The notes under the pieces: generated by a model
The model's database searches: none
Told to the model about the DNA's origin: nothing
What the model saw: the letters and a program-made list of their open reading frames with translations, nothing else
Part shown: positions 1 through 32,967 of the stretch, in pieces
How the letters are laid out: every line of letters starts with the position of its first letter
Position numbering within the stretch: position 1 is the first letter of the stretch
Position numbers and translations under genes: made by a program
Source: Haematospirillum jordaniae
Length of the DNA: 32,967 nucleotides
Sequence record: NZ_CP014526.1
Reading direction: 5' to 3' (one strand)

Positions 1-398
1 TTGCCGTGCTGCAAAATCATCCGGCAGCACAGGTCCTTGCCCACGCCGTCATCCAGTTGAGGCTTGAAGCTCTCGGGGTATTTGGCGATGGCAATCATGG
101 TGCCATCAGCGTCAAACACACCGGCCTCGCGCACGGTCCAGCCGCCGACCCGCGCCGGGATCACCGCCTCGACGGTCAGCCAGGCGGGGTTTTTCGGGTC
201 GGTGCGGATGGAATTAATTTCGGTGCGCCAGACCTCGCGGCGCAAGGCGGTTTGATCCGGCGTCGGGTCATAGGCTGCGCCGTTGCCATCGCCAAACGCA
301 AAATGGCTCAAGACCACTGGTTTTGCGGTGGCGAGGGCTTCGGTCAGGCGGGTATGACCCGCGTCGGTTACCAAAGTGTAATAGTGTGGTGCGCTCAT
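1..398 (-). CDS. H: Tail fibre protein gpH, N-terminal part. The ORF runs off the left edge and continues in frame at the right end of the window (32169..32967).
   Basis: ATG at 398..396 overlaps the gpI stop (ATGA). The minus-strand translation MSAPHYYTLVTDAGHTRLTEALATAKPVVLSHFAFGDGNGAAYDPTPDQTALRREVWRTEINSIRTDPKNPAWLTVEAVIPARVGGWTVREAGVFDADGTMIAIAKYPESFKP...CRMILQHG has no stop down to nt 1. It resembles the P2 gpH N-terminus as recalled (VGITTMAVGDGGG...EVWRHALNKIS...VIPPEVGGFWMRELGLYDDAGTLIAVANMAESYKPAL). Confidence 0.75.
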   Translation of the reverse strand, partial: MSAPHYYTLVTDAGHTRLTEALATAKPVVLSHFAFGDGNGAAYDPTPDQTALRREVWRTEINSIRTDPKNPAWLTVEAVIPARVGGWTVREAGVFDADGTMIAIAKYPESFKPQLDDGVGKDLCCRMILQHG

Positions 399-1027
399 GC
401 GGCCTCCAGCGGATAGGCAGTGACCGTTTCCGCGCCGTACAGGGCGGCGGCCATCAGGGGGGCGGGGGCGAGGGAAACCGGATCAACCGGGGGGGCGGGA
501 CGCAGGCAGACGGTCTCACCCAGAAGCAAGGCCGCCGCCGTCTGCGGGGTTGCGCCGGCCTGCTGCATGACCACGCGCAGGGCGGTCATGCGCGAGCGAA
601 CATTCTTGGACGCCCGGATCATGGACAGGGCTTCCTCGGACAGCGCGGGCGAGACCGGGCCCGGTGTGGCAATTTCGGCGGTAAACGTATGGACGGGCGC
701 GGGCGGGTCAGCCTCAAACCATTCGGTCAGCGTGACGTCAACATCAAGGGCCTCAAGTGCCTCGCGCACCGCGCGCCGCGTCCCCTTGTGGCGGTGCACT
801 TGAAACGAAGCCGCAATCACCGCCCGCTTCCGCGCCTCCGGCCAGTCCGGGTTCCATACATCCACCGACAACGCCCACGCGAGCCAGGGAAGAAACGGTG
901 CCGGGCAGGTTGCAGGATTCCAGATATCGCGGATCACAATATCCAGGGTGCCCAAGCGAACAGCGTCGACATCGGCAAGCAGGCGCTCAAGGTGTGACGC
1001 CGATGGGGGGAGGAGGTTATCCGCCAT
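395..1027 (-). CDS. I: Baseplate/tail protein gpI (P2 I family)
   Basis: Inside the 395..1309 ORF; the likely start is ATG at 1027, overlapping the gpJ stop. P2-I-like sequence (MADNLLPPSASHLERLLADVDAVRLGTLDI...NPDWPEARKRAVIAASFQVHRHKGT), and it sits in the P2 position after J. Confidence 0.8.
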   Translation of the reverse strand: MADNLLPPSASHLERLLADVDAVRLGTLDIVIRDIWNPATCPAPFLPWLAWALSVDVWNPDWPEARKRAVIAASFQVHRHKGTRRAVREALEALDVDVTLTEWFEADPPAPVHTFTAEIATPGPVSPALSEEALSMIRASKNVRSRMTALRVVMQQAGATPQTAAALLLGETVCLRPAPPVDPVSLAPAPLMAAALYGAETVTAYPLEAA

Positions 1028-1946
1028 GGCCGCCCCCCTGCCGCACAACCCGAATGCTGGTGCACTGTGCCCAGCCGGTTTCACCCGGTTCAAGGTCTGC
1101 GGATGGTTTTGACAGATGAACCTTGCGCACCCCATCCACACGCAGGGCCTTGTACAGCCCGTCAAGGGTGACCGGCTCACCAAGGCGGCGCTGGACCCGC
1201 GTAAAGGCGGTAACGGATGCTTCAGAAGCCGCCCTGACAACCTCTGAATCCGGTCCGTCATAAAGATCAAGGGCCGCCTCCACGCTGTACTCCAGCTTCG
1301 TTCCGGCACGCACCTGCAGGCAATCCGTAAACGGCCTTACTCCGTCTCCGAACCGCCCCTTCATGGAGGCAGCAACGGTGGACAGAAGGCTGGAAGAGGG
1401 GGTCCCGTCCCCTTCGCTGGACAGGATCGTCAGGATGACATGGCCGGGCTGTGGCGATGTGACCGCCACATCGGAGACACGCGGGTCGGCATTGAGCGCG
1501 TGATACACATACGCGCCTTCGGGTCCAGCTGTTGACAGGGCTTCGAACGCCAGTTGCACCCTTGAGCGGAGACGGGCATCAGTCTCATAAACCGGCGGAC
1601 GGGGTGGCACCGCCTTCGGGTCACCGGCCTCGACAATCTGGCGGGATGTGGAGAAATTGGCGGCCAGAACATCCAAAGTCGCTCCCGTGGCTGTCGCCAG
1701 CATGACCGCGCGAACACCGTCATTGATCCGCTGGCGCAGAAGCAGTTCACGATAGCTCGCCTCTTCCAGAAGCTTGACGAGCGGGTCACTCTCGCTGTCT
1801 GGATTCCAGTCAGGAAGCAATCCGGCTGCATCCAGCCTTACGCGCAAAGCGGCCTTACGCGCGGCAAGGATTGTCTCGAAATCCAGTGGCTCAACCGCAT
1901 CCGGGGCCGGAAGCCGGGACAGATCAATAGAGGCAAAGCGGCTCAT
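1017..1946 (-). CDS. J: Baseplate assembly protein gpJ
   Basis: 309-aa ORF of the baseplate J family, in the W-J-I order typical of P2. Confidence 0.85.
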   Translation of the reverse strand: MSRFASIDLSRLPAPDAVEPLDFETILAARKAALRVRLDAAGLLPDWNPDSESDPLVKLLEEASYRELLLRQRINDGVRAVMLATATGATLDVLAANFSTSRQIVEAGDPKAVPPRPPVYETDARLRSRVQLAFEALSTAGPEGAYVYHALNADPRVSDVAVTSPQPGHVILTILSSEGDGTPSSSLLSTVAASMKGRFGDGVRPFTDCLQVRAGTKLEYSVEAALDLYDGPDSEVVRAASEASVTAFTRVQRRLGEPVTLDGLYKALRVDGVRKVHLSKPSADLEPGETGWAQCTSIRVVRQGGGHGG

Positions 1947-2290
1947 CGCACACCGCCAAGGACCGTGTGCGCCGCAATATTCAGATTGGATGCACGAACG
2001 GAAAGAACCGTACGGATCTCGGCTGACCCATCAGCATGCACAACAACATTGCCCGACACCACCCGAACCCTTGGCTCCCAGCGGGTGATAGCCTCGGCGG
2101 CTGCGGCAATCACGGACAGGGTCCACGCCTGTGAGCCGGGGCTGTCGATCAATTCAAAGATATGGGACCCATAACCCCGACGCATAACCCGCGTTCCAAC
2201 GGGGGTGCACAGGATGTCTGCAACAGAATTGCGAATATCCTGCAACTCATTCACGACAGTACCTGAAACGGGATCAATGCTGATTGTCAT
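1943..2290 (-). CDS. W: Baseplate protein gpW (gp25/GPW family)
   Basis: 115-aa ORF; ATGA overlap with J; GPW/gp25-like size and position. Confidence 0.8.
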   Translation of the reverse strand: MTISIDPVSGTVVNELQDIRNSVADILCTPVGTRVMRRGYGSHIFELIDSPGSQAWTLSVIAAAAEAITRWEPRVRVVSGNVVVHADGSAEIRTVLSVRASNLNIAAHTVLGGVR

Positions 2291-2296
2291 CGCGTC

Positions 2297-2929
2297 CTAC
2301 GGGTGGCTGTGATGGTTGCTATTCGAACCGCCCGCCAGAATGTCACCGCTGGCGTGGAGGCTGCCGTTGACCGTCACGACGCCGGTCACGGCAAAATCAC
2401 CGTTCAGGCTGAAGCTGCCGGTCATGCTGGTGGCACCGCTGCCCCCGCCGCTGGCAACAATTTCGACTGTCTGGGCAGCAATACGGGCTGTCGTGGCGGC
2501 TGAAATGTCTACGGACTGCCCGGCGCTGGCCCTGACATCGCCGCCCGCGTCAACCGCAACGGACCCGGGCGTCCGAACAGACAGGTGTTGCTGCAAGCTG
2601 TCGTAGGCAACTGTGGTGCCGTCATTCCACTGGATGACATCCAGACCATCCGATGTATCCGGGGGCGGCAGGGCATCGGAATAAAGCACCTGAACAATGA
2701 CGGCATTCGCCGGGTTCCCGGACGGGCAGGCCAGAACAACCTGCGTCCCTGTCCGCAAGGGTCTCCAGCGAATAAAATTCGCCCCAATCTCGGCGGGATA
2801 GGGCAACCACCCCGTCTCGCGCCCGGAGATGGTCGCGCGGACCCGCCGCCCTTCATGATCAACACGGGTAATGACGCCGAATGCCACAAGGTTTTCAAGC
2901 CGTCTTTGTATGTCAGCCAGTCCCGCCAT
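2297..2929 (-). CDS. V: Baseplate spike/assembly protein gpV
   Basis: Inside the 2297..3103 ORF; the likely start is ATG at 2929 (MAGLADIQRRLENLVAFGVITRVDHEGRRVR...), overlapping the stop of the upstream gene. C-terminal Gly/Ser-rich spike and typical gpV N-terminal OB-fold motif. Confidence 0.8.
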   Translation of the reverse strand: MAGLADIQRRLENLVAFGVITRVDHEGRRVRATISGRETGWLPYPAEIGANFIRWRPLRTGTQVVLACPSGNPANAVIVQVLYSDALPPPDTSDGLDVIQWNDGTTVAYDSLQQHLSVRTPGSVAVDAGGDVRASAGQSVDISAATTARIAAQTVEIVASGGGSGATSMTGSFSLNGDFAVTGVVTVNGSLHASGDILAGGSNSNHHSHP

Positions 2930-3384
2930 TACCGGATACCCCGCAAGGCTTCGATGATGGTGGAGCGGATTGCCTTTCGGTCCGCTGCGGGCAGACCCAG
3001 AAGGGGGCGGGCGGCATAAAGGGCAAGGCTGCCGTTTTCCGAAACCGTGTCTGTCCGTCCATAGTGATGAACGGCAGCCACACGGGCGCGGTGGCCGCGC
3101 CAACCAACCTCGACCCCATCCGCAGTCGCTACCAGCATCATTCGTCTTGAATCGCGCAGCCTGACCATCATCTTTTTCGCGGTCCGTATCCGCCCCCGGT
3201 TGTTTCGCTTTCGCATCGGCCAGCGTTCGCCGTCCGGACCCATATGACGGGCCATGCGAGCTTGGTTACGACGCCGCATAATTTGACCAAGGCTGCGCAT
3301 CAGCTTCTTTCGCTCGCCCGGACCCAGCGCAACCAGAGCCGAACGAAGCCAGGCATCAAGAGGTTCAAACGCGTCATCACTCAT
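2929..3384 (-). CDS. S: Tail completion / virion morphogenesis protein (gpS-like)
   Basis: 151 aa; position between R and V as in P2; sequence resembles the phage virion morphogenesis family (P2 S). Confidence 0.55.
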   Translation of the reverse strand: MSDDAFEPLDAWLRSALVALGPGERKKLMRSLGQIMRRRNQARMARHMGPDGERWPMRKRNNRGRIRTAKKMMVRLRDSRRMMLVATADGVEVGWRGHRARVAAVHHYGRTDTVSENGSLALYAARPLLGLPAADRKAIRSTIIEALRGIR

Positions 3385-3836
3385 GGACAGACTTCTCCAA
3401 GCTTCATGACATCCGGGGCGGACACTATCCGCAGGCGCACACCCCCGGCTTCCGGACTGGGGGCAACAATGTCTTCAAGATCGATAGTGAGAGAGATATC
3501 CACGCTCTTGTGGTCAATCACATCGACCAGAAAGCGGATAGCTTCGTCGGACACATCAGGATCAACCGTGTGCAACCAGTCCAGAACCACAAAGAAAAGA
3601 GCCTCGGGCGCACCTGTGTAGTCCGTTACAATCAGGTGCGCGGTATAGTTCATCACGAATGCATGGTTACGCGGGCCGCGTCGGGACAAGACGGATCCCT
3701 TCTCCGCGAAAACAAGCAGCTTGTCAGGAGCAATCCCCAAAGGAGACCCAAGGACGGCTTCGCGTATATCACCCAGCTTCTTCACGGCTCGTCCTCCCGG
3801 CTCCACGCAAGAACAGCCGCCAGCCGTGACCGGCAA
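3381..3836 (-). CDS. R: Tail completion protein (gpR-like). The start is uncertain and may be an internal GTG near 3785.
   Basis: 151-aa ORF directly downstream of the spanin genes, overlapping S by 4 nt; P2 order lysC-R-S-V. Confidence 0.5.
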   Translation of the reverse strand: MPVTAGGCSCVEPGGRAVKKLGDIREAVLGSPLGIAPDKLLVFAEKGSVLSRRGPRNHAFVMNYTAHLIVTDYTGAPEALFFVVLDWLHTVDPDVSDEAIRFLVDVIDHKSVDISLTIDLEDIVAPSPEAGGVRLRIVSAPDVMKLGEVCP

Positions 3837-5028: not shown

Positions 5029-5219
5029 AGGCTTATGCGTTTCTTTACAGGGGCGGATACGGGGGGGAGGGTGATGAGCGTTCCGTGCGGCAGGACAAGG
5101 CCAAGATCAGCCAAACCGGGGTTTGCCGCATAAATGCGGGCCGTCATCGCGGTGTCTCCATAGACCCGCAGGGCCAACTGGTCCACGGTCTCGCCGTGCA
5201 AGGATCGAACGGAAGCCAT
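5019..5219 (-). CDS. X: Tail protein X (gpX)
   Basis: 66 aa. The GDTLDxLA-type motif (GETVDQLALRVYGDTAMTARIYAANPGLADLGLVLPHGTLITLP) is typical of the P2 X family; it lies between L and the lysis genes. Confidence 0.65.
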   Translation of the reverse strand: MASVRSLHGETVDQLALRVYGDTAMTARIYAANPGLADLGLVLPHGTLITLPPVSAPVKKRISLWD

Positions 5220-5683
5220 CAGATCAACTCCACAACAATACGAGGCTTACCGCACAGCCTGGCCGTTGCCTCGGCGGCATGGCGAAGGTAGTCACGGGCT
5301 GTAACCTCCAGATCATCCGCACGGCCATGGCCCGACTTTGTGCTGTCAAAGTCACGGGTGGTCAGAAGCAATTCGGCACGGGCGCGGGCGTAAACAGCCC
5401 GCTTGTAGAAAAGGACTTTTTCCGGCACGCCCCCATACGACGTCTGCTCCGGAACCTGATCAAGACATGCTGCTGTCTGCGCAGACCTCCACGCACGAAC
5501 GCCCGCGTTGACCTCCAGAATCGCGGCCTGCACGGCAGCGGCCATCCGATCCGGGCCAAACGTGTCTCCCAGCCCCGTTTGGGACCGGAATTCCGCAAGA
5601 TCGACGTTCGGGAACCAGCCATCATTGGTGATGGTCCGCTCGTAACTCGTGGCCCGAAAACTGGTAGGTACAAGAACAGACAT
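5219..5683 (-). CDS. L: Head completion/stabilisation protein (gpL)
   Basis: 154 aa, directly downstream of M as in P2. Confidence 0.7.
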   Translation of the reverse strand: MSVLVPTSFRATSYERTITNDGWFPNVDLAEFRSQTGLGDTFGPDRMAAAVQAAILEVNAGVRAWRSAQTAACLDQVPEQTSYGGVPEKVLFYKRAVYARARAELLLTTRDFDSTKSGHGRADDLEVTARDYLRHAAEATARLCGKPRIVVELI

Positions 5684-5782
5684 ACGCTTTGATCCATGGT
5701 AGTGGCGGTGACGGCAGAGGACCGTTCAGGGCCTTGGAAGGCTCATCACGTCCCCCGCGCCGTCACCGCGCCGGGGGGCCTG

Positions 5783-6439
5783 CTATGTCCCTTCGTCCGA
5801 TGCAACAGAAAGCCGCCTCAATCGCGCCAGATGGCTCCGTACACCGCACTTCGGATGGAGGGCGAGCGCGGCCTCGAAATGATCCATTGCCTTGACCGGG
5901 TTGCCGTCCATACAGGCAAGGCCAAGCGCCTTGTGTGCCTTTGCCCTCACTTCGTCCGGCATGTCGGCCTCCTGCGTCAGGAGCAAGGCCCGGTCCAGCG
6001 GTGCTGCGTGCAGCGGGTCCGGATCAGGGCGCTCGAGCGCAACATCCGCCATCTGCTCAAGCAGTGTGGTGGGCAGATTCCGGGTGAAACCGGGCGGCAT
6101 GCTCAGATCATGGCGAACAGCGTAATCCGCAATGTGCAAAGCCCCCTCAAGATCACCCGTATCCAGACGCCACAGCATGACCATCGCCAGAACATCGTCC
6201 TGTGCACCGCGCCCGCCTTCAAGGACACCATCGACATAATCCGTATAGGCGGGCAGGAATTCGGCCTTCGCCGCCGTCTTTGCCGTACGTGACTGCTTGG
6301 TTTTCAGAACAGATGTATGCAAACGTAACTGTGCCTGCATTTTTTCAGATGACGACCGGGCCGCCATACGGTCCATGGGGTCGCTGGCATCGTGGCGGGC
6401 CGCCATTGTACGGATGAAATGTTGACGGGCCGGCGACAT
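5783..6439 (-). CDS. M: Terminase small/endonuclease subunit (gpM)
   Basis: Inside the 5783..6493 ORF; the likely start is the internal ATG near 6439 (MSPARQHFIRTMAAR...), abutting the capsid gene stop. P2 order N-M-L. Confidence 0.7.
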   Translation of the reverse strand: MSPARQHFIRTMAARHDASDPMDRMAARSSSEKMQAQLRLHTSVLKTKQSRTAKTAAKAEFLPAYTDYVDGVLEGGRGAQDDVLAMVMLWRLDTGDLEGALHIADYAVRHDLSMPPGFTRNLPTTLLEQMADVALERPDPDPLHAAPLDRALLLTQEADMPDEVRAKAHKALGLACMDGNPVKAMDHFEAALALHPKCGVRSHLARLRRLSVASDEGT

Positions 6440-7467
6440 CACGCCCACCCGTCCTGGCCGTCCGGGAGCAGAATGCCTTCGACCAGTGCACACTTGCCCA
6501 TGTCCTCAACAACATACGCCTCGTTGATCGAGAGATAGTCCACGATACGGTCGCGCTTTGGCTCGTCCTCGATGTGACGACGATGGCTTCCGGCCTGCCA
6601 ATAGATGGAGAGGTTCGAAGGCGAGGTAACCAGAACGGAGCGGGCCGGGAAAAACGGCACCGTCAAGGCCGAGCGCCCGCCGATGGTTTTGTTCAGGATG
6701 GTTGTCTGCCACGCCGCCCGCTCGGTCGGCGCATCGGCGGTCGGGTTATTGATCATGGACAGGTAACGGTCGTTCAACAACTGGTTGCCGACGATGACCA
6801 CGATCGACGGATCGCCCCGATGATGCTCCGCAACAAGCTCGTTGCAGACATCAAAGACCAAGGCATCCAGATTGCGGTAATCGGCGCCCTTGGCCTCGCC
6901 CATCTTTTTTCCGGACATGACACGCGCCGGGGCATCGGTGCGCAGATGCTGAAGCCAGCCGATGTTCACATCTTGCAACAAGGTATTCGTAACCGGGTTT
7001 GTATTTGCGGCTGCTGACGTTCCGTTCCAGCCAATCATGAGCCGGTCACGGGCTATCTGCCGGGTTACGTGATCCCTGATCCGTGCGTGAAAATCCGGAA
7101 ACTTCGCCCAGCTATCCAGAAGGGCATAGGGAACGAAGGTGTCAAAATCCGTCTTCCGGCACGTGTACTCGCGCTTCGTCAAGCCTGTGACCGCGCGGGG
7201 CTGCCTGTCCTTCTCGGCGGTATTGGTACGCCCTGCCACAGGGCCGGAGGCACCAAGGCCCAGAATCTGTCCTGACTGCTCAGTCCGGGAGATCATGTTG
7301 ATGCTCTGGAGGAAATCTGCGCTGTCCTGAATGCGGTCTTCCAGCGTTTGCTCGACGGTCGGGTCGATTGAGAATTTTGTACTGGTACTCTCCACGCCGT
7401 TCAGGCGCGAAAGCTGGTCGGTATAGGTCTGGAACAGGGCACGGGTCTTGTTATGCATGATCAGCAA
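6439..7467 (-). CDS. N: Major capsid protein (gpN, P2 family)
   Basis: 342-aa ORF at the P2 N-family size, downstream of scaffold gene O. Confidence 0.9.
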   Translation of the reverse strand: MLIMHNKTRALFQTYTDQLSRLNGVESTSTKFSIDPTVEQTLEDRIQDSADFLQSINMISRTEQSGQILGLGASGPVAGRTNTAEKDRQPRAVTGLTKREYTCRKTDFDTFVPYALLDSWAKFPDFHARIRDHVTRQIARDRLMIGWNGTSAAANTNPVTNTLLQDVNIGWLQHLRTDAPARVMSGKKMGEAKGADYRNLDALVFDVCNELVAEHHRGDPSIVVIVGNQLLNDRYLSMINNPTADAPTERAAWQTTILNKTIGGRSALTVPFFPARSVLVTSPSNLSIYWQAGSHRRHIEDEPKRDRIVDYLSINEAYVVEDMGKCALVEGILLPDGQDGWA

Positions 7468-8255
7468 TCCGTCAGGGCTATGCTTCCGGTTGCAACCGGG
7501 CGCGGTGGGTTTGCATCGGTGGATGAAAGCTTTGTAACCAGGTCATCAAGGGCGCGCCGGGTCTCGGCAAGCTCGGTAGTCAAGGCATCGACCTTGACGG
7601 CAGGAGCACAGGCCCCGATACGCTCCGATAGCCTTGACACCTCGTCGGCAATGACAAGAATTCCGTCTGCTGCTTCGGATGTGTGGACCGTCTCTGCCTT
7701 GGGTGGGCCTGCCAGCATATCCCGGACGCGCGACAGGAGACCCGGCCTGCTGTCATCATCGGCGGCAATGGTATCAAGCCGGAAGTCATCCTCAACGACC
7801 GCGCCATACAACTGCACGCGGGTCTTGTCCGGTGCCTTGTCCGACTGGATAGCAAATTTGAGCATTTCGGTGCCAAGCGAAGCCGGGCTGTCTGTAATAG
7901 CCAGACCAACCAGATATGCCTCGCCGCTCTTGGCAAAATTGGGATCAATCTCGACAGACCAGTAAACCTTCTGGCGGGATGCCGCCATTTTGATCAGATC
8001 CTCGGTTGCATCCATTTGCGCCAGCAAGACGCGGTTTCCGGCCTTGTCCGTGTCGGCTTTGACCGCAAGCACGTCGCCATAGGCCCGCCCCGGATTGTCG
8101 GGCAGAAAGGACCGCATATGCTCCAGCCAGATCCGCGCCCCATAGCGGTTGGGATCATAGGTTCGGGCGACCTGATCTATCTGGTCGACGGTTATTTCGC
8201 GACCATCGACGGTCCGCCCGGACGTGGCGACGCGAAAAAATTTGGTGACAGGCAT
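7461..8255 (-). CDS. O: Capsid scaffolding protein (gpO)
   Basis: 264-aa ORF, divergent from terminase gene P as in P2. Confidence 0.85.
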   Translation of the reverse strand: MPVTKFFRVATSGRTVDGREITVDQIDQVARTYDPNRYGARIWLEHMRSFLPDNPGRAYGDVLAVKADTDKAGNRVLLAQMDATEDLIKMAASRQKVYWSVEIDPNFAKSGEAYLVGLAITDSPASLGTEMLKFAIQSDKAPDKTRVQLYGAVVEDDFRLDTIAADDDSRPGLLSRVRDMLAGPPKAETVHTSEAADGILVIADEVSRLSERIGACAPAVKVDALTTELAETRRALDDLVTKLSSTDANPPRPVATGSIALTDC

Positions 8256-19522: not shown

Positions 19523-20056
19523 TCATTCCGCCTCTACAATCTTGTTGTTTTCATCGAGCGTGTACCAAGTGTCGGGTTTGATGCCATTCTCACCGACAAC
19601 CCCGACGACAACGCGCCCATGATCTGAACCGCGCGCCAAAACCCGAAACGCGATTACGCCGCCATCACTTGCCCTGGCCTTTCCGCCGCCAAGCGCATCA
19701 TCGACGAACACCAGAGCCAAGCCCGCGTGCGCTGCCTCTGCCCAACCGCTTTCACCTGCGATCGCAACATCCCAACCAATCGAATGGCCATCACAACCAG
19801 CAATCGCTATGTGATGTGAGTCAGCACATCCGCCCTCGCCAACGATCGCAACGTCCGACCACAAAGCGAGTCCACCGACCGGTGCAAAACACACAGGTCC
19901 GTAGGAAGACAATACGGAGAGCCGGTAATCAAAGCCGCGATTGAAAGCGATCGTGCCACCATAACTCTCAACTTCCATGCAGAGGTCCGAATCATCAGCC
20001 GCAGCACCCCAAACACGCTTGCCTCTGCGGAATCGGTCACGCCAGCCCATTACCAC
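19523..20056 (-). CDS. Hypothetical beta-helix-like repeat protein (early operon)
   Basis: 177-aa ORF with degenerate short repeats (DVAIVGEGGCADSHHIAIAGCDGHSIGWDVAIAGESGW). Co-directional with ogr and repA. Function unknown. Confidence 0.3.
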   Translation of the reverse strand: MVMGWRDRFRRGKRVWGAAADDSDLCMEVESYGGTIAFNRGFDYRLSVLSSYGPVCFAPVGGLALWSDVAIVGEGGCADSHHIAIAGCDGHSIGWDVAIAGESGWAEAAHAGLALVFVDDALGGGKARASDGGVIAFRVLARGSDHGRVVVGVVGENGIKPDTWYTLDENNKIVEAE

Positions 20057-20409
20057 CCTCCTTCATCGGATTGCTTTGAACCTCTGGCCTTGACCCCATA
20101 ACGGGCATACAGGCAGTCGGCAGCCTGCTGTGGTGTCAGGTAGTTTTTCCGTCGACTCGCGCGGTATTCGTTGCATCGCCTTAGAAAGAAGATCGCGACC
20201 AGAATCGCCAAGCCGCACCACTGCATGGCCTGGCTTCCCAAAAGCCAGCCGGCACCAATCACTGCAAAAATCAGCATGAAGGTGACGGCATCGCGCCGCC
20301 ACGACTGCTGCACCGTGGTTTGCAGGATGATTATTTTAACCTTGTCGCGCCAACCAAGGCTTATGCTCTCGGTCGCGTGAACACCTTCTACACCGTGAGT
20401 CGTCTTCAT
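20050..20409 (-). CDS. Hypothetical 2-TM membrane protein (early operon)
   Basis: From the internal start MKTTHGVEG...; helices VTFMLIFAVIGAGWLLG and WCGLAILVAIFFL. Confidence 0.3.
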   Translation of the reverse strand: MKTTHGVEGVHATESISLGWRDKVKIIILQTTVQQSWRRDAVTFMLIFAVIGAGWLLGSQAMQWCGLAILVAIFFLRRCNEYRASRRKNYLTPQQAADCLYARYGVKARGSKQSDEGGW

Positions 20410-20422
20410 GGCGCGCACCTCG

Positions 20423-20680
20423 TCACAGGAATGGAAACTGCATTTGATTCGGCGAAACACCGACAGCGAACGGAACGCCGACCCGCCGCCGACCCGGCAA
20501 CGAACTTTCGTTGAGAGAGCGAACCGGCGTCAGCGCGGCCACAAACATTGCGGCGCAATCCTCGCTGGTGCACAGATACGTAATCTCGCGGTACACGTCG
20601 GTAACCTGTCGGGTCTTGACCGTCCGACACCGGACGCCGCAATACGGACACTGCGTCGAATTGCTCGGACCTGCGCTCAT
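20423..20680 (-). CDS. ogr: Ogr/Delta-family zinc-finger late-gene transcription activator
   Basis: MSAGPSNSTQCPYCGVRCRTVKTRQVTDVYREITYLCTSEDCAAMFVAAL carries the C-x2-C-x22-C-x4-C pattern and the RTxxTRxVTD...FVAxL signature of P2 Ogr / 186 B. Confidence 0.75.
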   Translation of the reverse strand: MSAGPSNSTQCPYCGVRCRTVKTRQVTDVYREITYLCTSEDCAAMFVAALTPVRSLNESSLPGRRRVGVPFAVGVSPNQMQFPFL

Positions 20681-21105
20681 AGCTTCACCAAGAATTGTGA
20701 TATTGCCACAACCGCTTTAGTCAGTTCCGTGCGGCACACGGCACGCTCCTGATGGTCGATGTGACCGTCGGCCAGCGCCTCGGCCAGAACCGCAGCACCC
20801 TGTGTAATGTCGCGCATCAGTGAAAGGCCCGTGATTGTCTCGTCCCCGGTTCGCCTCACACCGGACAGCCCTGCCGGGCGCAGAACGGTTTCGGCAAATT
20901 CAACGGGCAAGACCCGGATCAGGGTCATTGCGTTGTGCCACTCCGGGCAGCTTTCGTTGCGAAGATAGCGACGGATCGCATCCTGCCCCACACCTGTGGC
21001 CGCCGCGACGTCGCCGACAGAAAACCGCCGTCCCGCTCCAACATAGAGTGACAGTGCGTCACTGAAGGCTTGACGTACGTTCCTGATCTGTTCTGGGTCT
21101 ATCAT
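20677..21105 (-). CDS. HTH regulatory protein of the early operon (CII-like role possible)
   Basis: 142 aa with an HTH around FSVGDVAAATGVGQDAIRRYL. Its first ~10 codons (MIDPEQIRNV) are duplicated at 22112 on the other side of the tandem-repeat array. Confidence 0.4.
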   Translation of the reverse strand: MIDPEQIRNVRQAFSDALSLYVGAGRRFSVGDVAAATGVGQDAIRRYLRNESCPEWHNAMTLIRVLPVEFAETVLRPAGLSGVRRTGDETITGLSLMRDITQGAAVLAEALADGHIDHQERAVCRTELTKAVVAISQFLVKL

Positions 21106-22108: not shown

Positions 22109-22363
22109 TCATGACTGAATCCCTTCGACAATCCGTCCATGATGGCGACCCAGAGCGTGAGGGGCAGAAGAAGGTAGGCTGGTGTGGAACGCTATCGCAC
22201 GGATGATCTTGTTCGCCGTAGAAACAGACACAGATGCAGAGCCACGCTTCCAGCGTGTGAACGAAGAGCGTGAAACACCGGCATCCCTGCACACCTGGTT
22301 GATGCTAAGGCCCACAGCTTTGGCAATGCGCTCAATCTCATGTGGTGTAACAGGGTGCAACAC
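22109..22363 (-). CDS. Cro/Apl/Cox-like HTH protein, first gene of the early lytic operon
   Basis: 84 aa; HTH IERIAKAVGLSINQVCRDAGVSRSSFTRWKRG; divergent from the CI-like repressor gene. Confidence 0.55.
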   Translation of the reverse strand: MLHPVTPHEIERIAKAVGLSINQVCRDAGVSRSSFTRWKRGSASVSVSTANKIIRAIAFHTSLPSSAPHALGRHHGRIVEGIQS

Positions 22364-22469
22364 AATCAGCCTCCCTTGTGATCAGGGGGCGATTTTAGGC
22401 ACGCCTTTCTAGCAGGGCAAGCGTTTTAGTGATTTTTATAATTTACCATATTGCTAAATCAGTTCTCAA
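22364..22469. promoter_or_regulatory. Lysis-lysogeny switch region (divergent promoters/operators)
   Basis: 106-bp AT-rich intergenic region between divergent repressor-like genes; TATAAT at about 22433. Confidence 0.4.
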
Positions 22470-23522
22470 ATGATGACCGTAGGTGCGAATTTGCATACGG
22501 TAGCCTGCATGAGCATGAATGTGGGAAATAAGCAATTTCGCGAATACATAGACGCAGTGAAAGCAGTCACTGGTCTCTCACCGACTGCGATTGCTACAAA
22601 AGCTGGGCTTTCGTCATCAACGGTAAACACGCCGTACTACAGACCAGAGCTTGGCGTCACACCAACGTTACGAACAATAAACAAGATCGCCAAGGCCACC
22701 GACGTCCCGTTTGACCCCATGAGCTTTGATGAACTCGGAGCGATGGAGGACATCGACGAGAACAGGGAAAAGGCGCGGCCAAGAAAGAAGCCTGTCTTCA
22801 GGGGCGAAAAGGTCGGTTCCGACGCCTTCCAGCGATACATGAAGTCCGTTATTTCACAAACCGGACTTAGCCCCACAATGATCGCAAAAATTTCAGGTGT
22901 GTCCGGCCCAACATTGACCAATGCCTATTACACTGGAGCGCCTCCTACCCGCCGCACGGTTGACAGAATTGCGCAGGCAACCGGCATACCATTTGCGGGA
23001 GCCACAGAGGGTGTGACAACGGATGATGAGAATACTGGGCGCGACACGTCTCACATGGCGCGATGCCAACCGATACCAGTTCCACTTGATGTCTCTGCCC
23101 TTGAAAAGGACCTGCCGATAGTTTTTCTACATATAATAGAAGTGCCTTCTAACAATAAGTTAGAGGGGTACTCTATGAAGAAAAATGCCATCGAATTCTG
23201 TCGGCGTCCACCGGGCGTAGCGGGTGCACCAAATGCTTACGCAATCTATGCACCAGACGATGCTTTGGTGAAGTACGATTCCGGTGACTTGCTGTTTCTG
23301 GTGCCTGATCGGCCTGTCAAACCGGGCGATCATGCCCTCGTTCACGTGCAGTACAAGATGGACCAAGAACCCGTCGTGCACCTTGGACGCCTGACCGCAC
23401 GCAGTGCAACATCGATTACACTGTCGATCGACAGGCCGGAACCAACACAACAAAGAATTGCACTCGATAAAATCGTTTCCATTCACAAGATCCTGAGTAA
23501 TCGGGAAATTTTTGGCATCTGA
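22470..23522 (+). CDS. CI-like immunity repressor with two tandem N-terminal DNA-binding modules and a C-terminal LexA/S24-like domain
   Basis: The ~60-aa module is internally duplicated (REYIDAVKAVTGLSPTAIATKAGLSSSTVNTPYY...INKIAKATDVPF versus QRYMKSVISQTGLSPTMIAKISGVSGPTLTNAYY...VDRIAQATGIPF). The C-terminal region (YAIYAPDDALVKYDSGDLLFLVPDRPVKPGDHALVHV) resembles the S24 fold. The start may be an internal ATG (22509/22515). Confidence 0.55.
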   Translation: MMTVGANLHTVACMSMNVGNKQFREYIDAVKAVTGLSPTAIATKAGLSSSTVNTPYYRPELGVTPTLRTINKIAKATDVPFDPMSFDELGAMEDIDENREKARPRKKPVFRGEKVGSDAFQRYMKSVISQTGLSPTMIAKISGVSGPTLTNAYYTGAPPTRRTVDRIAQATGIPFAGATEGVTTDDENTGRDTSHMARCQPIPVPLDVSALEKDLPIVFLHIIEVPSNNKLEGYSMKKNAIEFCRRPPGVAGAPNAYAIYAPDDALVKYDSGDLLFLVPDRPVKPGDHALVHVQYKMDQEPVVHLGRLTARSATSITLSIDRPEPTQQRIALDKIVSIHKILSNREIFGI

Positions 23523-23543
23523 GAACAAGGAAGGAGAGACGGC

Positions 23544-24056
23544 GTGCCGGATGGTTTTAATGCGTTGCAAAGAGAGGTTCGGTCCGCCGCATCCCGATCC
23601 CCGGAATTTTTGTCTTTTGACGGCCTAGTGGATGCTGAAGACGTCTGCGACAAGGCCGTCTGCATGGAATACACCAATGCTGACGGTGGAAAGTCGAAGC
23701 GATGGATCACGATGCGCAGCATCGACGAGGACGGACCAACGCCGAAGTTTTTCGCCTATTGCTGGGTGCGCCGCCAAGTGCGCTCCTTCCGGGCCGATCG
23801 CGTAGAAACGTTTATAGACTGTGATGGCGAATGCATCTCCGGGCGGGATTTTTTCGAGAGAATCGGCGTTAATCTCCCGCCGCCCGCCTCAGTAAGCCGG
23901 TCACGCAAGAAGAGCCGGAAAGCCGATACGGAACACAGCAGCTATAACAGCAGCAGCGGAACCGCCGCCACCACGGAGTCTGCTGGAACAGGAAACACTA
24001 TCGCAACGCTCGTCTTTATCGGCTTTGTTATTTACCTGATCAGCCTGCTCTTTTAA
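23544..24056 (+). CDS. WYL-domain protein with a C-terminal transmembrane anchor
   Basis: KSKRWITMRSIDEDGPTPKFFAYCWVRRQVRSFRADRVETF matches the WYL-domain consensus (..YL.AYC..R...R.FRxDRI). Then a Ser-rich linker and the terminal hydrophobic helix IATLVFIGFVIYLISLLF. Shine-Dalgarno AAGGAAGGAGAG, 21 nt after the CI stop. Confidence 0.5.
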   Translation: MPDGFNALQREVRSAASRSPEFLSFDGLVDAEDVCDKAVCMEYTNADGGKSKRWITMRSIDEDGPTPKFFAYCWVRRQVRSFRADRVETFIDCDGECISGRDFFERIGVNLPPPASVSRSRKKSRKADTEHSSYNSSSGTAATTESAGTGNTIATLVFIGFVIYLISLLF

Positions 24057-24379: not shown

Positions 24380-24547
24380 ATGAAAATGCAACTCCGTGGA
24401 TTTGCCGCCGCCTTGCTGCTGGCAGCCCTTCTGGGGGCCTTGGCCTTGCTTGTCAGCGGGTTGCTCGCGGCCTTGGCGATAGCTGTACCTGTTCTTGTTA
24501 TTCTGGCCGTGCTGTTTGGAAAACCAGTGCAGGAGGATGACCAATGA
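24380..24547 (+). CDS. Small hydrophobic protein (55 aa, 2 predicted TM helices). Not in the ORF track because it is under 60 aa.
   Basis: Shine-Dalgarno AAGGATAAGG then ATG. Product MKMQLRGFAAALLLAALLGALALLVSGLLAALAIAVPVLVILAVLFGKPVQEDDQ. The stop overlaps the start of the downstream HTH gene (ATGA). Confidence 0.35.
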   Translation: MKMQLRGFAAALLLAALLGALALLVSGLLAALAIAVPVLVILAVLFGKPVQEDDQ

Positions 24548-24771
24548 CACCACGTGATTTCAGGGCCTGGCGGCGAAAGATGGGCCTGACCCAAGAGCAG
24601 GCGGCTGAACTTCTTGGCATGGGCCGTACTGCTGTATCACAGTACGACACAGGCAAACGCCGCGCCCCGGCAGAGGTTATAGAGACAGTGCCCCGGTATA
24701 TTGCGCTGGCATGCGCAGCCATCAGCCACGGACTTGCGCCGTATGGTTCGGATGAGGAGGAAGGCCGCTAG
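24544..24771 (+). CDS. XRE-family HTH transcriptional regulator
   Basis: MTPRDFRAWRRKMGLTQEQAAELLGMGRTAVSQYDTGKRRAPAEVIETV is a classic Cro/CI-type HTH. 75 aa. Confidence 0.6.
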   Translation: MTPRDFRAWRRKMGLTQEQAAELLGMGRTAVSQYDTGKRRAPAEVIETVPRYIALACAAISHGLAPYGSDEEEGR

Positions 24772-24822
24772 GCCTTCTCACAGGCAGAAATATCGGTTGT
24801 GAATCCGCCGCTCCCGATCAGG
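24768..24822. repeat. 55-bp direct repeat copy 1 (duplicate of the 3' end of gene D)
   Basis: CTAGGCCTTCTCACAGGCAGAAATATCGGTTGTGAATCCGCCGCTCCC recurs at 25576..25630. Both copies encode the same C-terminal peptide SGGFTTDISACEK(A/V). Confidence 0.6.
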
Positions 24823-25190
24823 TCATCGGCATCTATGCCAAGGATATTCGCCAGACTGCTCGCCATAATGGGCGACATAACCCGACGCCCTGTTTCCAGT
24901 TGCGAAATATAGTTCGCCGTACATCCGGCCTTCTCTGCAAGGCTTTTCTGTGACAAGCCTCGGTATGTCCGGTAGACATGCAGCGGGTTCTCACCGTCCA
25001 AAAGCCTGTTGACCAGAGCGGCTGGCCATGTCTCTTCGTTCGGGTCATGTGTGGCAAGGACGAGCGCGGCGAGATCCTCATCGCTTAAGGCCGATTCCGC
25101 TTGTTCTGCGAGCCGCCGGAATATCTCAAACGGCAGCACCACCCCTACCGGAGAGCCTGTGTGGTCCTTTATGACCGATACTTTCAGCAT
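24768..25190 (-). CDS. HigA-like antitoxin (N-terminal toxin-neutralising domain plus C-terminal XRE HTH)
   Basis: HTH GLSQKSLAEKAGCTANYISQLETGRR. Located immediately downstream of the RelE-like toxin. The last 18 codons derive from the duplicated gene D 3' end. Confidence 0.6.
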   Translation of the reverse strand: MLKVSVIKDHTGSPVGVVLPFEIFRRLAEQAESALSDEDLAALVLATHDPNEETWPAALVNRLLDGENPLHVYRTYRGLSQKSLAEKAGCTANYISQLETGRRVMSPIMASSLANILGIDADDLIGSGGFTTDISACEKA

Positions 25191-25206
25191 GGTATCCTCT
25201 TATAGG

Positions 25207-25455
25207 TTAGTAGGCGCTTCCGCGCGGGGCTATCTTCTGCACATCCAGCACGAAGCCGTCTTCGGAATAAATAACGCGGTATGTACCAACACGCAGGCGG
25301 TACATACCCGTACCCACCAGCGGCTTTATATCCAAATCGGGCCGCGCGGGATTTTCTGCCAATTGCGTTATTTTTTCCCGAATTTGGTGGGCGCGGTCCC
25401 GTGGGATCTTTAGCAGGGCCTTTCTGGCCGCCCTGCTGTATTCAATTTCAAGCAC
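25207..25455 (-). CDS. RelE/ParE-family toxin
   Basis: MLEIEYSRAARKALLKIPRDRAHQIREKITQLAENP...MYRLRVGTYRVIYSEDGFVLDVQKIAPR is a typical RelE/ParE layout. 82 aa. Confidence 0.7.
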   Translation of the reverse strand: MLEIEYSRAARKALLKIPRDRAHQIREKITQLAENPARPDLDIKPLVGTGMYRLRVGTYRVIYSEDGFVLDVQKIAPRGSAY

Positions 25456-25575: not shown

Positions 25576-25630
25576 CCGCTAGACCTTCTCACAGGCAGAA
25601 ATATCGGTTGTAAATCCGCCGCTCCCATCG
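25576..25630. repeat. 55-bp direct repeat copy 2 (native 3' end of gene D)
   Basis: See 24768..24822. Confidence 0.6.
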
Positions 25631-29459: not shown

Positions 29460-29889
29460 GGCGTAAACTCCTTTGCCGCGCGGGCCTCGGCCTCTGCGAA
29501 ATCAATCGCAAGCGCATAGGCTTCGGCATAACGATCCAGGGTCAGGGCTTCAAAAACCGGCGGAGGAAACGACCCCGGAAACACTTTCATCAAAATTCCC
29601 CAAGCCATCAGGGCGTCGTCGGGGATGCCGTCTCCGCACGTTCGAAAAAACCGGCCACCGCTGTGCAAACCGCCAGCAGGTCGGCTGCGCTCATCCGGTC
29701 GAGGGCTTCCTGCGTCAGGGGCTCTGTGGTGATGCGGAGAACAAGGGCAAAGATTGCGGAGGTATCAAATGAAAAGACCTCGGTCATCTTCAGGCCCCGC
29801 AAATCACCGGCCAAGGGAACACGCAATTTCAGCGCCGTTACCTTGCTGCCATTGACCGTGATCGGGGTTGTGAGTGCAACAGTTTGCAT
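29456..29889 (-). CDS. E': gpE' (E+E'), product of a programmed -1 frameshift from E into the overlapping 29456..29668 frame
   Basis: The slippery run G-GTT-TTT-TCG (plus strand cgaaaaaacc at about 29644..29653) lies near the 3' end of E, with the -1 frame open for ~60 further codons ending at the T start. This mirrors the P2 E/E' arrangement. The fused length is about 140 aa. Confidence 0.45.
29608..29889 (-). CDS. E: Tail assembly chaperone gpE
   Basis: 93 aa, between FII and T. Confidence 0.6.
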   Translation of the reverse strand: MQTVALTTPITVNGSKVTALKLRVPLAGDLRGLKMTEVFSFDTSAIFALVLRITTEPLTQEALDRMSAADLLAVCTAVAGFFERAETASPTTP

Positions 29890-29928: not shown

Positions 29929-30468
29929 CTAGATGCCTATTTTTGGGAGATCCGGCATGCCGGGCAGACCTATAGCCCGTGAAATCGCGCTGGCTCTGTC
30001 AATGCCACCGACCAGTTCTGTGCCGCCGAGCATGTCGATCTCAACCAGCTTCGAACCATTGGACGAGTAGCAGTAGTAGGTGAGAGGCATTTCAACCTTC
30101 ATTTTTGCCATGTCTTTCGCCTTGATCGTGCCCATGTCAATCGACTTCCAGCGCCCACGAACCGTGATATCGACCGCTGATGTTCCAACACCGTCGGCAG
30201 CCAGACCGGCAGCAACAAAGCGCACACCAAGCCCGCCAACATCGGACAATCCCCAAGCGCGCAAAACATCGGAATTGAACTCCCCGAGAGTGAACTCCAT
30301 CTTGAGCGGCTCCATTCCGAGATCGACAAGAACCGGACCCGCCATCCCGGCAGCCCGCCACTCTTCCGTGGACCGCTCCAGCTTTGGCAGAACGACTTCC
30401 TCTGCGATTCCCGCCATACCCCGTCCATCTATGAACACATTGAAATTCTTCAATATCATCGGCAACAT
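29929..30468 (-). CDS. FII: Tail tube protein gpFII
   Basis: Inside the 29929..30513 ORF; the likely start is MLPMILKNFNVFIDG, which resembles the P2 FII N-terminus (LMNVFLNG). Confidence 0.8.
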   Translation of the reverse strand: MLPMILKNFNVFIDGRGMAGIAEEVVLPKLERSTEEWRAAGMAGPVLVDLGMEPLKMEFTLGEFNSDVLRAWGLSDVGGLGVRFVAAGLAADGVGTSAVDITVRGRWKSIDMGTIKAKDMAKMKVEMPLTYYCYSSNGSKLVEIDMLGGTELVGGIDRASAISRAIGLPGMPDLPKIGI

Positions 30469-30490: not shown

Positions 30491-31663
30491 TCAGGCCGCC
30501 ATGGCCGAGGCAAAATCCATCAGGTATCCGTCCGTGATCTTCTGCTCGAACATCAGGTTTTCAAGCGGAGGGACGGGTGTGTAATCGTAGGAGACGAGGA
30601 GCTTTCCGGCCTTCAGCGTCGTGGCATCGTTCCTGGCCGGATCGAACCAAGCATTGCCGCCGATCAGATATCCATTCCGGACCAGTTCACGCATTTTGGC
30701 GTTGACCCCGTCAACAATGTCACGGGCCAGCATGGGATGAAGCGGTTTGTCCATCGCCCAGAAATGGGCCTCCGCCATCGTGTCAGCCAAGATATGGGCT
30801 GTCCGCGTGTAATTCTCGAACGCAAACAGGGGATCAGCCGAGCAGGTCCGCGACCCCCAGAAGCGGTACCCGTCCTTGCGGATCAATGTTGTGACATCGG
30901 CGGCGTTCAGAAGCCCGGCATCCGTGGCCGGATTCTGCAGATCCCAGAACACATCCTTGCTGATTCCGGTTACGCCTTGAACAACGACGTTTGATAGTGT
31001 CTTGTGCCAACCGATGTCTTCGTCAATCTTGGCCCGCAGACCCAGTGCACGGGCTGTCGCCCACTCTGTCCGGCTGGCACTGGACGCATTGTCCCATGAC
31101 TGGAAGTCAGGCCAGATCACCATCAGTTCGCGGTTTCCAAAATTCTGGCGGTAGGCAATGGCCGCATCCCGATTGACGCAGCCGTGGGCGGCGACATAGG
31201 CAAAGGCACGGGTCTTCGCGGCAATTGACGCAAGCTCGACGGCAACGGGCTTTGTATCCAGGCCAGGCGCTCCAAGAATACGCGGCGTCAGGCCGAACAT
31301 GGCCTTGGCAGCCGTCAATGCCTGCAAGCCGGTTTTCATCCCGTCAGCCGTTACGCCGCCAATCACGTTGGTTGTTGTTTTGGCGGGCGTGTCGCCCTCC
31401 GGGACACGAACAACAACCGTTGCCGGGTTCCCGTGATCCTTGATCGCAGCAAGGACATGGGGGAGCGTGCCAGAATCCCCCGCCTTCCCGAGACCGGACA
31501 TAATGTCCGTCAAAAGCACCGGGCGGTTCAGCGGAAAAGCTCCGGCATCGGCATCGGCACCTGTTGCAACAAATCCGATAACGGCACTCTCTATGGTCCG
31601 GATGGGGCGAATACCGTTGCTGGCTTCAATAACGCGGACGCCATGATGATAATCGGCAGCCAT
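30491..31663 (-). CDS. FI: Contractile tail sheath protein gpFI
   Basis: 390-aa ORF of the sheath family, upstream of FII. Confidence 0.9.
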
Positions 31664-31686
31664 GACTCTCTCCTTCTTGCGTGGTT

Positions 31687-32160
31687 TTATTCACCGTCCG
31701 GCGTGTGCGGCCAGTGCGTGTCGTTGTAGTAATCGGGTGGGATGGGGGGTGCGGCTTCCAGGGCGTTGCAGCGCTCGCGAATGGCGGCGCGAAACCGGGC
31801 GATGGGCGCGGGGACGGCCTCGCCGGTTTCAATCTGACGCACGACGTACCAGTCCGTCGCCGCAAGTCGGCGGCGGGCTTCGGCTTGCACCAGTGCGGCA
31901 GAAGGCAGTACGGCTTCAGCGGCTTCAGCGGCTTCAGCGTCCGGGGACACCTCTGCGGTGGTGTCTGGCACAGGCTCAACCACCCACGCCGTTCCATCCC
32001 AGCGGGCCTGTTCGCCCTCGGCAAGCGCAGGCGGCGGGACGGTGACGCACCCGGCTGGGATCAGCCAGGTATCCGGCGAACGCGGATTGCGGTCGCTCTC
32101 ATCAAGGATCTGTTCACCGGCGTAAAGGTCGTTTTGTGTGCGATAAACTGTTTGGGACAT
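31687..32160 (-). CDS. G: Tail fibre assembly chaperone (gpG/Tfa-like)
   Basis: 157 aa. The C-terminal [29 protein letters not shown] motif is typical of Tfa chaperones. Immediately downstream of H. Confidence 0.65.
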
Positions 32161-32168
32161 GACGGGCC

Positions 32169-32967
32169 TCAGCGATATCGGATGCAGGCAAGAAGGGCGA
32201 TGTTGCGGGGGCGGGTTTCGGCGCCGCCTTCACTTGAGGTTCTGTGGTAATTCGGGTCTATGTTGCCGTTGGGCCAGATTCCGTACCCACCGGTCGTTGC
32301 GAAAAATGCGCCTTGGTTAAAGGAACGACCTATCGAGACGTGACTGTGGCTTTCGAAGTCATCCGACTGTGCACTTCCGAACGCGCGGCCTGAATCCACG
32401 CCCCGCCCGTCATCCCAGCCGCGCAGGAATTCACCGCGCAGGTCCGGCACGGCGAAGGTTGTGGAGCCGTCACCACTCCCGAATGTGGTTCCGATCACGG
32501 TGAACAGTTCAGGGTATGCGGCGCGGCTCAGGAGCGCCCCGTTGCACTTCAGATACAGCGGCGGCGGCTCCTGCCCGGCATGCATGATCACGCTGCCCAC
32601 CGGAGCCGGAAAAGCCTGTGCCAGTGCCGCAGGCGTGACCGCCTTTTCCGCATCCGTCCCGGCCTTGACCTCATCCGCCGTCGCCAGCCGGACGATGCCG
32701 GGTGTTATGGGGGTGGCGGCGGGGATGGTGGCGGCATCCATGGCGGCCTTCAGGCCCGCCGGGGTGACGGCCAGATGGGTGGACGACCCGGCGCGGGCCT
32801 CGGCTGTGGTGGCCAGTTCCACCAGTCCCTTGACAGTGGTGGAGGCATCCGGCGGGCTGTGGCCGGGACCGGCATGAGAGGCGATCGCGGCGGCGACCTC
32901 TGCGGAAACATGATCACGGGTTGCAAGCACCACCGACGGGTCAATTTTCAGGGTCACGGCGCTCACG
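32169..32967 (-). CDS. H: Tail fibre protein gpH, C-terminal part (collar/receptor-binding domain). The 5' part is at 1..398 across the window junction.
   Basis: VSAVTLKIDPSVVLATRDHV... followed by repeated ATTAEA motifs and the C-terminal AVPDLRGEFLRGWDDGRGVDSGRAFGSAQSDD collar-type domain. The frame is continuous with the 1..398 ORF through the codon formed by nt 2, 1 and 32967. Confidence 0.8.
   Translation of the reverse strand, partial: VSAVTLKIDPSVVLATRDHVSAEVAAAIASHAGPGHSPPDASTTVKGLVELATTAEARAGSSTHLAVTPAGLKAAMDAATIPAATPITPGIVRLATADEVKAGTDAEKAVTPAALAQAFPAPVGSVIMHAGQEPPPLYLKCNGALLSRAAYPELFTVIGTTFGSGDGSTTFAVPDLRGEFLRGWDDGRGVDSGRAFGSAQSDDFESHSHVSIGRSFNQGAFFATTGGYGIWPNGNIDPNYHRTSSEGGAETRPRNIALLACIRYR

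Follow-up and report, generated by a model that had tools for sequence, protein, structure and literature searches.

The sequence record NZ_CP014526.1 of Haematospirillum jordaniae H5569 comprises 32,967 nucleotides (nt), and the whole of this stretch is the window analyzed here. It carries the head, packaging, tail, lysis and regulatory genes of a P2-like phage, all of them intact and of full length, together with a ParA ATPase, a small serine recombinase and several toxin-antitoxin modules, and the gene for its tail fiber, H, is divided between the two ends (Table 1). Comparison with the draft genomes of other H. jordaniae isolates (GCA_0121025xx to GCA_0121028xx, about a dozen assemblies) suggests that the window is, very probably, one complete copy of a 32,967-bp circular replicon, namely a P2-like (Peduoviridae-type) temperate phage that is kept as a plasmid in strain H5569. 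A literature search found no published description of this plasmid.

The plus strand reads TCAT at 395-398, which is ATGA on the minus strand, and the ATG of H (398..396) thereby overlaps the TGA stop of gene I (397..395), as the initial annotation had stated. From this ATG the minus strand is open down to nt 1, a distance of 398 nt or 132 codons plus 2 nt. The broken codon 133 is made up of nt 2, 1 and 32967 and reads AAC (Asn), and the minus-strand open reading frame (ORF) at 32169..32966 sits in exactly the frame that completes this codon with nt 32967. Joining the end to the start yields a single ORF of 398 amino acids (aa), ...GKDLCCRMILQHG-N-VSAVTLKIDPSVVLATRDHV..., which terminates at 32169..32171. 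Its product matches PF12571, the phage tail-collar fiber N-terminal domain, from aa 5 to 151 (profile positions 4-150 of 150, E 4e-56), and the join between aa 132 and 133 falls within this single unbroken match; a second Pfam domain, PF07484 (Collar), follows at aa 257-314. In BLASTP the joined protein aligns with P2 gpH (aa 26-241 of gpH) at 39% identity over aa 26-248 (E 1e-38), again free of gaps at the join. The one PF12571 match spanning the join and the gap-free gpH alignment exclude chance as its explanation, and the initial proposal of one continuous frame split across the ends, for which alignment of the joined ORF with gpH had been suggested as a check, holds in all its details. The gpH motif that had been given in support of it was nearly right, the real sequence being CRMVIIVSSVASVELTIDTTTVMATQDYV. 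The two domains, the identity with gpH and a downstream gene of 157 aa, with weak matches to tail-fiber-assembly PHROGs, identify H as a gpH-type tail fiber. A search of the window for terminal direct repeats of 10-500 nt gave none. The split of H is an artifact of cutting the circle open for a database record; the gene is intact in the cell, and its division, being a product of linearization, has no biological meaning of its own.

Evidence for closure also comes from database labels and from the other assemblies. One protein of the window, AMW35723.1, is entered in GenBank as 'hypothetical protein AY555_10105 (plasmid) [Haematospirillum jordaniae]', where AY555 is the prefix of the H5569 locus tags. 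The entry for the large terminase of the same genome is AMW35713.1. In another isolate the contig JAAVST010000014.1 (33,227 bp) runs through the 32967/1 junction: positions 1-1602 of the locus (L004) correspond to window 31366-32967 with 100% identity and positions 1603-21776 to window 1-20163 with 99.7% identity, no base is lost or doubled at the join, and H is annotated as one intact gene of 398 aa. The contig JAAVSS010000020.1 (33,310 bp; rebuilt from two loci) begins with a foreign stretch of 125 nt, follows the window from 28725 to 1 and on from 32967 to 28723 (100% identity), and closes with a foreign stretch of 215 nt. These two stretches are the opposite ends of an IS607-family insertion sequence (IS) inserted in the tape-measure gene T, and the 32,970 nt of window sequence between them equal the 32,967-bp circle plus a 3-nt overlap. 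This contig thus contains the whole circle once, opened in T and not in H, and hence the window and the contig are each continuous at the other's break. These observations bear on the possibility that the closure is an assembly artifact, with the ends joined, or the contig declared circular, by way of the repeated N-terminal region of I/H. Such a region is indeed common to other prophages, and a third contig, JAAVTC010000011.1, starts 16 nt from the opening point, which shows that assemblers do break there. However, two independent assemblies run through the junction with 100% identity and go on into many kilobases of unique sequence to either side, neither the joined reading frame nor the Pfam domain shows a seam, and the length of the circle agrees between the window and JAAVSS010000020.1; we consider an artifact of this kind exceedingly improbable.

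The surroundings of the element point to an extrachromosomal state. No host DNA was found beside it in about a dozen H. jordaniae assemblies, and among its genes that were looked up in these assemblies none lay on a contig larger than 50 kb. Contigs of other isolates end at IS607-family insertions (window 22036, 28189 and 28725), in the 297-bp repeats of the early region or in the I/H region, but never in host DNA. In two isolates with an IS in the tape-measure gene the element still assembles separately, into contigs of 33.3 kb and 28.7 kb; its retention despite an insertion in this essential gene fits vertical, plasmid-type inheritance and not repeated infection. At the level of assemblies, then, the element has the form expected of a phage-plasmid, a circular replicon without chromosomal junctions. 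The initial annotation had preferred a complete circular replicon opened inside H over a prophage embedded in host DNA, and the plasmid-labelled proteins, the junction-crossing contigs, the whole circle opened by an IS and the host-free flanks all support that preference, host genes beyond either end having been looked for and not found.

The circle might still be the excised or replicating form of an integrative prophage that is also present in the chromosome and gives rise to a separate contig by spontaneous induction. P2-like phages are normally integrative, and other P2-like prophages in H. jordaniae share the I/H region with the window at 89-97% identity. A 28-mer spanning the junction is contiguous in three IMG/VR contigs from isolate genomes (L001-L003), but these are mosaic relatives that match the window over only ~0.9 kb on each side. 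An integrase and an attP-type module were not found in the window, which does contain ParA and multiple addiction modules; with no host junction in about a dozen assemblies, and with copies carrying an IS-broken tape-measure gene persisting as separate contigs, an excised prophage is a very unlikely account of these data.

Whereas the record opens in H, the phage genome itself probably has its ends elsewhere. In P2-like phages the cos site lies close to gene Q and yields cohesive ends of 19 nt. The window does not contain the P2 cos 19-mer at up to 3 mismatches, and a 12-mer core has one match, which taken alone is at chance level. This match gained meaning because the same site is conserved in relatives found via their large terminase, at 22/23 in two of them (L033 and L039) and at 27/30 in another (L044), where it follows the Q gene at a distance of about 130-320 nt. 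The candidate core aligns with the reverse complement of the P2 cosL end. The P2 cos lies 187 nt beyond Q, whereas in the window three toxin-antitoxin modules intervene between Q and the cos-like site. Taken together, these features argue for cos packaging, with putative natural genome ends at ~13.7 kb, and in that case the opening in H would be a matter of record-keeping. The initial annotation had also allowed for one unit of a circularly permuted genome; in view of the P2-type terminase genes and the conserved cos-like site this is unlikely, and a circularly permuted headful genome was rejected.

Table 1. Coordinates of the features recognized in the window
Feature	Position	Strand	Remarks
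H, 5' part	1..398	-	ATG 398..396; 132 codons + 2 nt; continues at nt 32967
I	395-1027	-	Baseplate/tail-completion group (395..3785); PHROGs, Pfam, P2 similarity
J	1017-1946	-	Same group and evidence as I
W	1943-2290	-	Same group and evidence as I
V	2297-2929	-	Same group and evidence as I
S	2929-3384	-	Same group and evidence as I
R	3381-3785	-	Same group and evidence as I
LysB-position ORF	3912-4346	-	Lysis cassette; without family match
Endolysin	4331-4828	-	Lysis cassette
62-aa ORF, holin position	4825-5013	-	Lysis cassette
X	5019-5219	-	P2 homologue; adjoins lysis cassette
L	5219-5683	-	Head gene; Pfam/PHROG and position
M, small terminase	5783-6442	-	Block of head genes (5219..8255)
N, major capsid	6439-7458	-	Block of head genes
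O, scaffold	7461-8255	-	Block of head genes
P, large terminase	8399-10174	+	PHROG, Pfam, P2 similarity
Q, portal	10174-11118	+	PHROG, Pfam, P2 similarity
HicB/HicA	11180-11893	-	Toxin-antitoxin; between Q and cos-like site
MazF/MazE	12108-12652	-	Toxin-antitoxin; between Q and cos-like site
HicA/HicB (second)	12850-13529	+	Flanked by direct repeats of 74 nt (12756, 13605)
Candidate cos core GTCTCCCCCCGCCACGCT	13704-13721	+	18 nt, G/C-rich; orientation relative to Q as in P2
81-aa ORF	13933-14178	-	Position of a centromere-binding partner; overlaps parA, downstream; without family match
ParA ATPase, 219 aa	14144-14803	-	NCBIfam NF041546 (equivalog), 181.8 bits, cut-off 180
ThsB-like TIR protein	15351-15743	+	Low-GC island
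8xMP membrane protein (octameric)	15698-16249	+	Low-GC island
Small serine recombinase, 191 aa	16435-17010	+	Resolvase/invertase type; PF00239 + HTH_7; PHROG 125; 50% identical to KS14 gp6 invertase
HI1420/BrnA-type antitoxin	17017-17544	-	Pairs with Gp49/HigB-like toxin
Gp49/HigB-like toxin	17557-17874	-	Pairs with HI1420/BrnA-type antitoxin
p228, winged-helix protein, 228 aa	18505-19191	-	Candidate replication initiator
p175, p119, Ogr/Delta (20423-20680), p142	19523..21105	-	Early-operon genes; Ogr, zinc-finger late activator
Three tandem 297-bp units	21147-22042		Gene-free kilobase in early operon
84-aa helix-turn-helix (HTH) gene	22109-22363	-	Cox/Cro position; divergent from double-HTH gene
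Double-HTH protein, 337-350 aa	22470/22509-23522	+	Repressor position, from which its role is assigned
p170	23544-24056	+	Immunity-type region (22109..24056)
55-aa ORF	region 24380..25455		Same region as MqsA-like HTH gene
MqsA-like HTH protein	24544-24771	+	PHROG/Pfam scans
ParE/RelE toxin + HTH partner	24768-25455	-	Bracketed by 52-nt direct repeats (24764, 25575)
D	25579-26559	-	Tail gene
U	26556-26972	-	Tail gene
T, tape measure	26976-29459	-	Tail gene
E	29608-29889	-	Tail gene with T-run for E+E' frameshift
FII, tube	29929-30468	-	Tail gene
FI, sheath	30491-31663	-	Tail gene
G, fiber assembly	31687-32160	-	Pfam/PHROG and position
H, 3' part	32169..32967	-	nt 32967 completes codon 133; stop 32169..32171; includes Collar domain

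The late genes place the element with the P2-like phages. They run in the order H, I, J, W, V, S, R, lysis cassette, X, L, M, N and O on the minus strand, P and Q on the plus strand, and D, U, T, E, FII, FI and G on the minus strand; in tblastn searches 19 late genes and ogr were matched by P2 at 24-59% identity, and L, E and G were assigned from Pfam/PHROG families and position. PHROG, Pfam and tblastn show head, packaging, tail and lysis genes arranged as in P2, together with an activator of the Ogr/Delta zinc-finger family. Specifically, homologues of Q, P, O, N, M, X, R, S, V, W, J, I, H (N-terminal part), FI, FII, T, U, D and ogr occur in P2 order, the P/Q and O-N-M-L operons are divergent, the cos-like site has the P2 orientation relative to Q, and E has a slippery T-run. 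This run (29645-29651; GGTTTTTTC on the minus strand) lies ~36 nt upstream of the E stop and is followed by a short ORF in another frame, an arrangement that fits the conserved -1 frameshift producing P2 E+E'. In contrast, the fiber of the element has 398 aa where that of P2 has 669, their similarity stops at ~aa 248, and the C-terminal, receptor-binding part is not common to both. The closest late modules, recovered by scanning contigs with the large terminase, belong to integrated prophages of Rhodospirillales (58-72% identity in this protein), and no plasmid-backbone genes were found in the flanks fetched around them. The large terminase of the window is misnamed 'oxidoreductase' in GenBank and in several RefSeq entries, a label that hides the phage nature of the plasmid.

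With this inventory the idea can be weighed that the element is no longer a phage but a plasmid whose P2-type gene cluster is defective or domesticated, as a tailocin-like system or as a prophage in decay. The intact, full-length late and regulatory genes of the window speak against it, as do the conserved cos-like site and the conserved capsid and terminase genes, for which a tailocin has no need. It does draw on the IS that interrupts the tape-measure gene in some isolates and on a 46-kb variant of the element that has lost ogr and neighboring early genes. On balance we regard a defective or domesticated cluster as unlikely, and retain a temperate phage kept as a plasmid as the preferred interpretation.

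The non-structural part of the element departs from P2. For int, C, cox, B, A, old, tin and fun of P2, tblastn detected no counterpart in the window, attP is likewise absent, and PHROG/Pfam scans recovered no integrase or gpA family in any ORF scanned. No ORF of at least 250 aa is an integrase, and none of this size is unassigned except antisense or repeat-spanning ORFs. The early module typical of P2, that is a tyrosine integrase with attP, C/Cox and the rolling-circle initiator gpA with gpB, is accordingly lacking; the earlier statement that every P2 module occurs once and in P2 order stands for the virion and lysis genes and ogr, but not for these functions. P2 integrates, whereas the element in the window appears to be kept as a plasmid. 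The features that may underlie this state are: 1) a partition system, indicated by a ParA that passes the NF041546 cut-off, and by the adjoining 81-aa ORF. 2) The serine recombinase, which at 191 aa is too small for a serine integrase. Its use as a tail-fiber invertase, as in Mu and P1, was considered and rejected: its gene and H are 16 kb apart, an alternative fiber segment in inverted orientation is lacking, and the window has no inverted repeats of at least 30 nt. 3) Five to six toxin-antitoxin modules on 33 kb. The direct repeats around two of these modules mark their insertion, and those around the ParE-HTH pair duplicate the 3' end of gene D. The resolvase gene has nucleotide matches of ~75% on more than 1,800 plasmids, and a 42-bp stretch at its 3' end (17003-17044) is 95% identical to a 'mobile element protein' in P1-type phage records.

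The region between parA and the recombinase gene holds probable cargo. A low-GC island at 14858-16411 (GC 0.40-0.45, against 0.57 overall) contains the genes for the ThsB-like and 8xMP proteins, a probable defense cargo. The two are possibly a Thoeris-like or other TIR defense pair, situated where P2 has its old/tin hotspot; a ThsA was not found in the window.

Among the early genes, p228 is the leading candidate for a plasmid replication initiator. It belongs to a family of about 160 winged-helix proteins, with HTH_36 in 31/46 members, and its structure model (mean predicted local distance difference test score, pLDDT, 86.9) has among its closest neighbors at low root-mean-square deviation domain 1 of RctB, the N-terminal domain of DnaD and a RepA_N initiator. 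A homologue with 88% identity is encoded at 1903-2583 of the 303-kb plasmid NZ_CP014527 of the same strain, beside an IS607 element. GC skew in the window tracks gene orientation and does not locate an origin. For the genes at 22109..24056 we infer immunity-type roles from their position; the structure model of the 337-aa protein in the repressor position is poor (mean pLDDT 53).

The three 297-bp units within the early operon are 92-95% identical to each other. Each copy gives a full-length match to the Rfam family RF02221 (sRNA-Xcc1) on the minus strand, at a sub-threshold 30-33 bits where the gathering cut-off is 53; at gathering thresholds no Rfam family was found in the window. Five contigs of other isolates that cover this region also have three copies, and a 35-mer from the repeat is absent from IMG/VR. 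The units, each with an sRNA-Xcc1-like fold, might act in the control of copy number or immunity. Short-read contigs often break in this array.

A number of points weigh against the plasmid interpretation or its assignment of p228. Ordinary winged-helix regulators match the fold of p228 as well as replication initiators do, and the 46-kb variant JAAVTC010000011.1 lacks p228 at the usual place. The circular topology is deduced from assemblies, and the phage nature from gene content. Finally, a megablast search of PLSDB with window 8000-32967 did not find a full-length match; the matches were limited to resolvase fragments and to 1 kb of NZ_CP014527 at 88% identity.

The isolates differ in the position of the IS607-family element, which encodes a serine-recombinase TnpA with a MerR-type HTH and a TnpB. 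It is inserted at window 22036 (L011/L013/L014), 28189 (L019) and 28725 (L018), the latter two points falling in T, whereas the window itself is free of it. The identical 125-nt IS end caps contigs of other isolates that stop at 22036 and 28189, and the partial gene at the other contig end encodes a MerR-type HTH as in IS607 TnpA. The larger variant JAAVTC010000011.1 (46,310 bp; L009, L115 and L028) has window 16334-21540, with the recombinase, a toxin-antitoxin pair, p228, ogr and others, replaced by IS607, which truncates the 297-bp array, and by 8.5 kb that are 99.5% identical to NZ_CP014527 4890-13420. The replacement encodes a second ParA/ribbon-helix-helix pair, a 568-aa serine recombinase, Xre-RES and a restriction-modification system, and indicates recombination between the phage-plasmid and the megaplasmid. 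The start of this contig matches the window's opening with 2 mismatches and window 17-750, which comprises the end of I and the H N-terminus and is the stretch shared with the prophages L001-L003, is missing from it; the 16-nt position is near the end of the conserved N-terminal fiber domain.

The closest parallel to this organization is Burkholderia phage KS14, a P2-like phage of 32,317 bp that has no tyrosine integrase but carries a Gin/Cin-like serine recombinase and ParA (PMC3091744). It was shown experimentally to lysogenize as a plasmid, 'unlike other P2-like viruses' (Lynch et al., PMC3091744). KS14 (Kisquattuordecimvirus KS14, NC_015273) and the window element are of similar size, have the P2-type late-gene order in common and both lack a tyrosine integrase; both encode a small Gin/Cin-like serine recombinase (50% amino-acid identity) and have a ParA gene between Q and the early region. 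Nevertheless, their structural proteins are only 25-63% identical, and the replication initiation protein, the 923-aa primase and the ParA of KS14 have no detectable homologue in the window. The H. jordaniae element in turn has p228, the toxin-antitoxin modules, ThsB/8xMP and the 3 x 297-bp array, and its host is an alphaproteobacterium and not a Burkholderia. Judged by gene content, the window element matches the KS14 design, with unrelated replication and partition genes. A megablast search of a phage collection with window 1-25000 found no related phage, the only match being one of 42 bp to P1. Genera of tailed phages are usually defined by high nucleotide identity over most of the genome, and with no nucleotide match and such protein identities the element falls outside Kisquattuordecimvirus. 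Like the phage-plasmids P1, N15 and SSU5 it combines a temperate tailed phage with partition and addiction functions and an extrachromosomal state, but a P2-type virion module is rare among the phage-plasmids so far described. In the 2021 survey of Pfeifer et al. KS14 is placed in the heterogeneous VP882 community, and Haematospirillum does not occur in its main text (PMC7969092).

These considerations suggest the following life cycle for the element. The prophage circle would be replicated as a low-copy plasmid by a plasmid-type initiator, the best candidate being p228, encoded in the early operon. Segregation of the copies would fall to ParA with its 81-aa partner, the small serine recombinase would resolve multimers and dimers, and the toxin-antitoxin pairs would stabilize the element through the killing of cells that lose it. 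Upon induction, Ogr would turn on the late operons, and the P/M terminase would cut concatemers at cos (~13.71 kb) to give linear, non-permuted virion DNA.

Among P2-like phages, KS14 is the one experimentally shown plasmid exception that we found, and the H. jordaniae element is the second clear example. More tentatively, the latter may represent a second, independently assembled lineage of P2-type phage-plasmids, a possibility that we regard as less likely than not, in which a late module related to Rhodospirillales prophages was combined with a backbone so far seen only in Haematospirillum and with a replicon of an uncharacterized type; its candidate initiator is p228, and a protein of the p228 family is also encoded on the 303-kb megaplasmid. 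Its host belongs to another bacterial class than that of KS14, and its genes for replication and partition are unrelated to those of KS14, which suggests that P2-like phages changed from integration to maintenance as a plasmid on more than one occasion. Many clinical isolates of H. jordaniae, a blood-borne bacterium and emerging human pathogen, carry the element, and its defense and addiction cargo and its recombination with the 303-kb megaplasmid would make it relevant to strain typing and to genome plasticity in this species.

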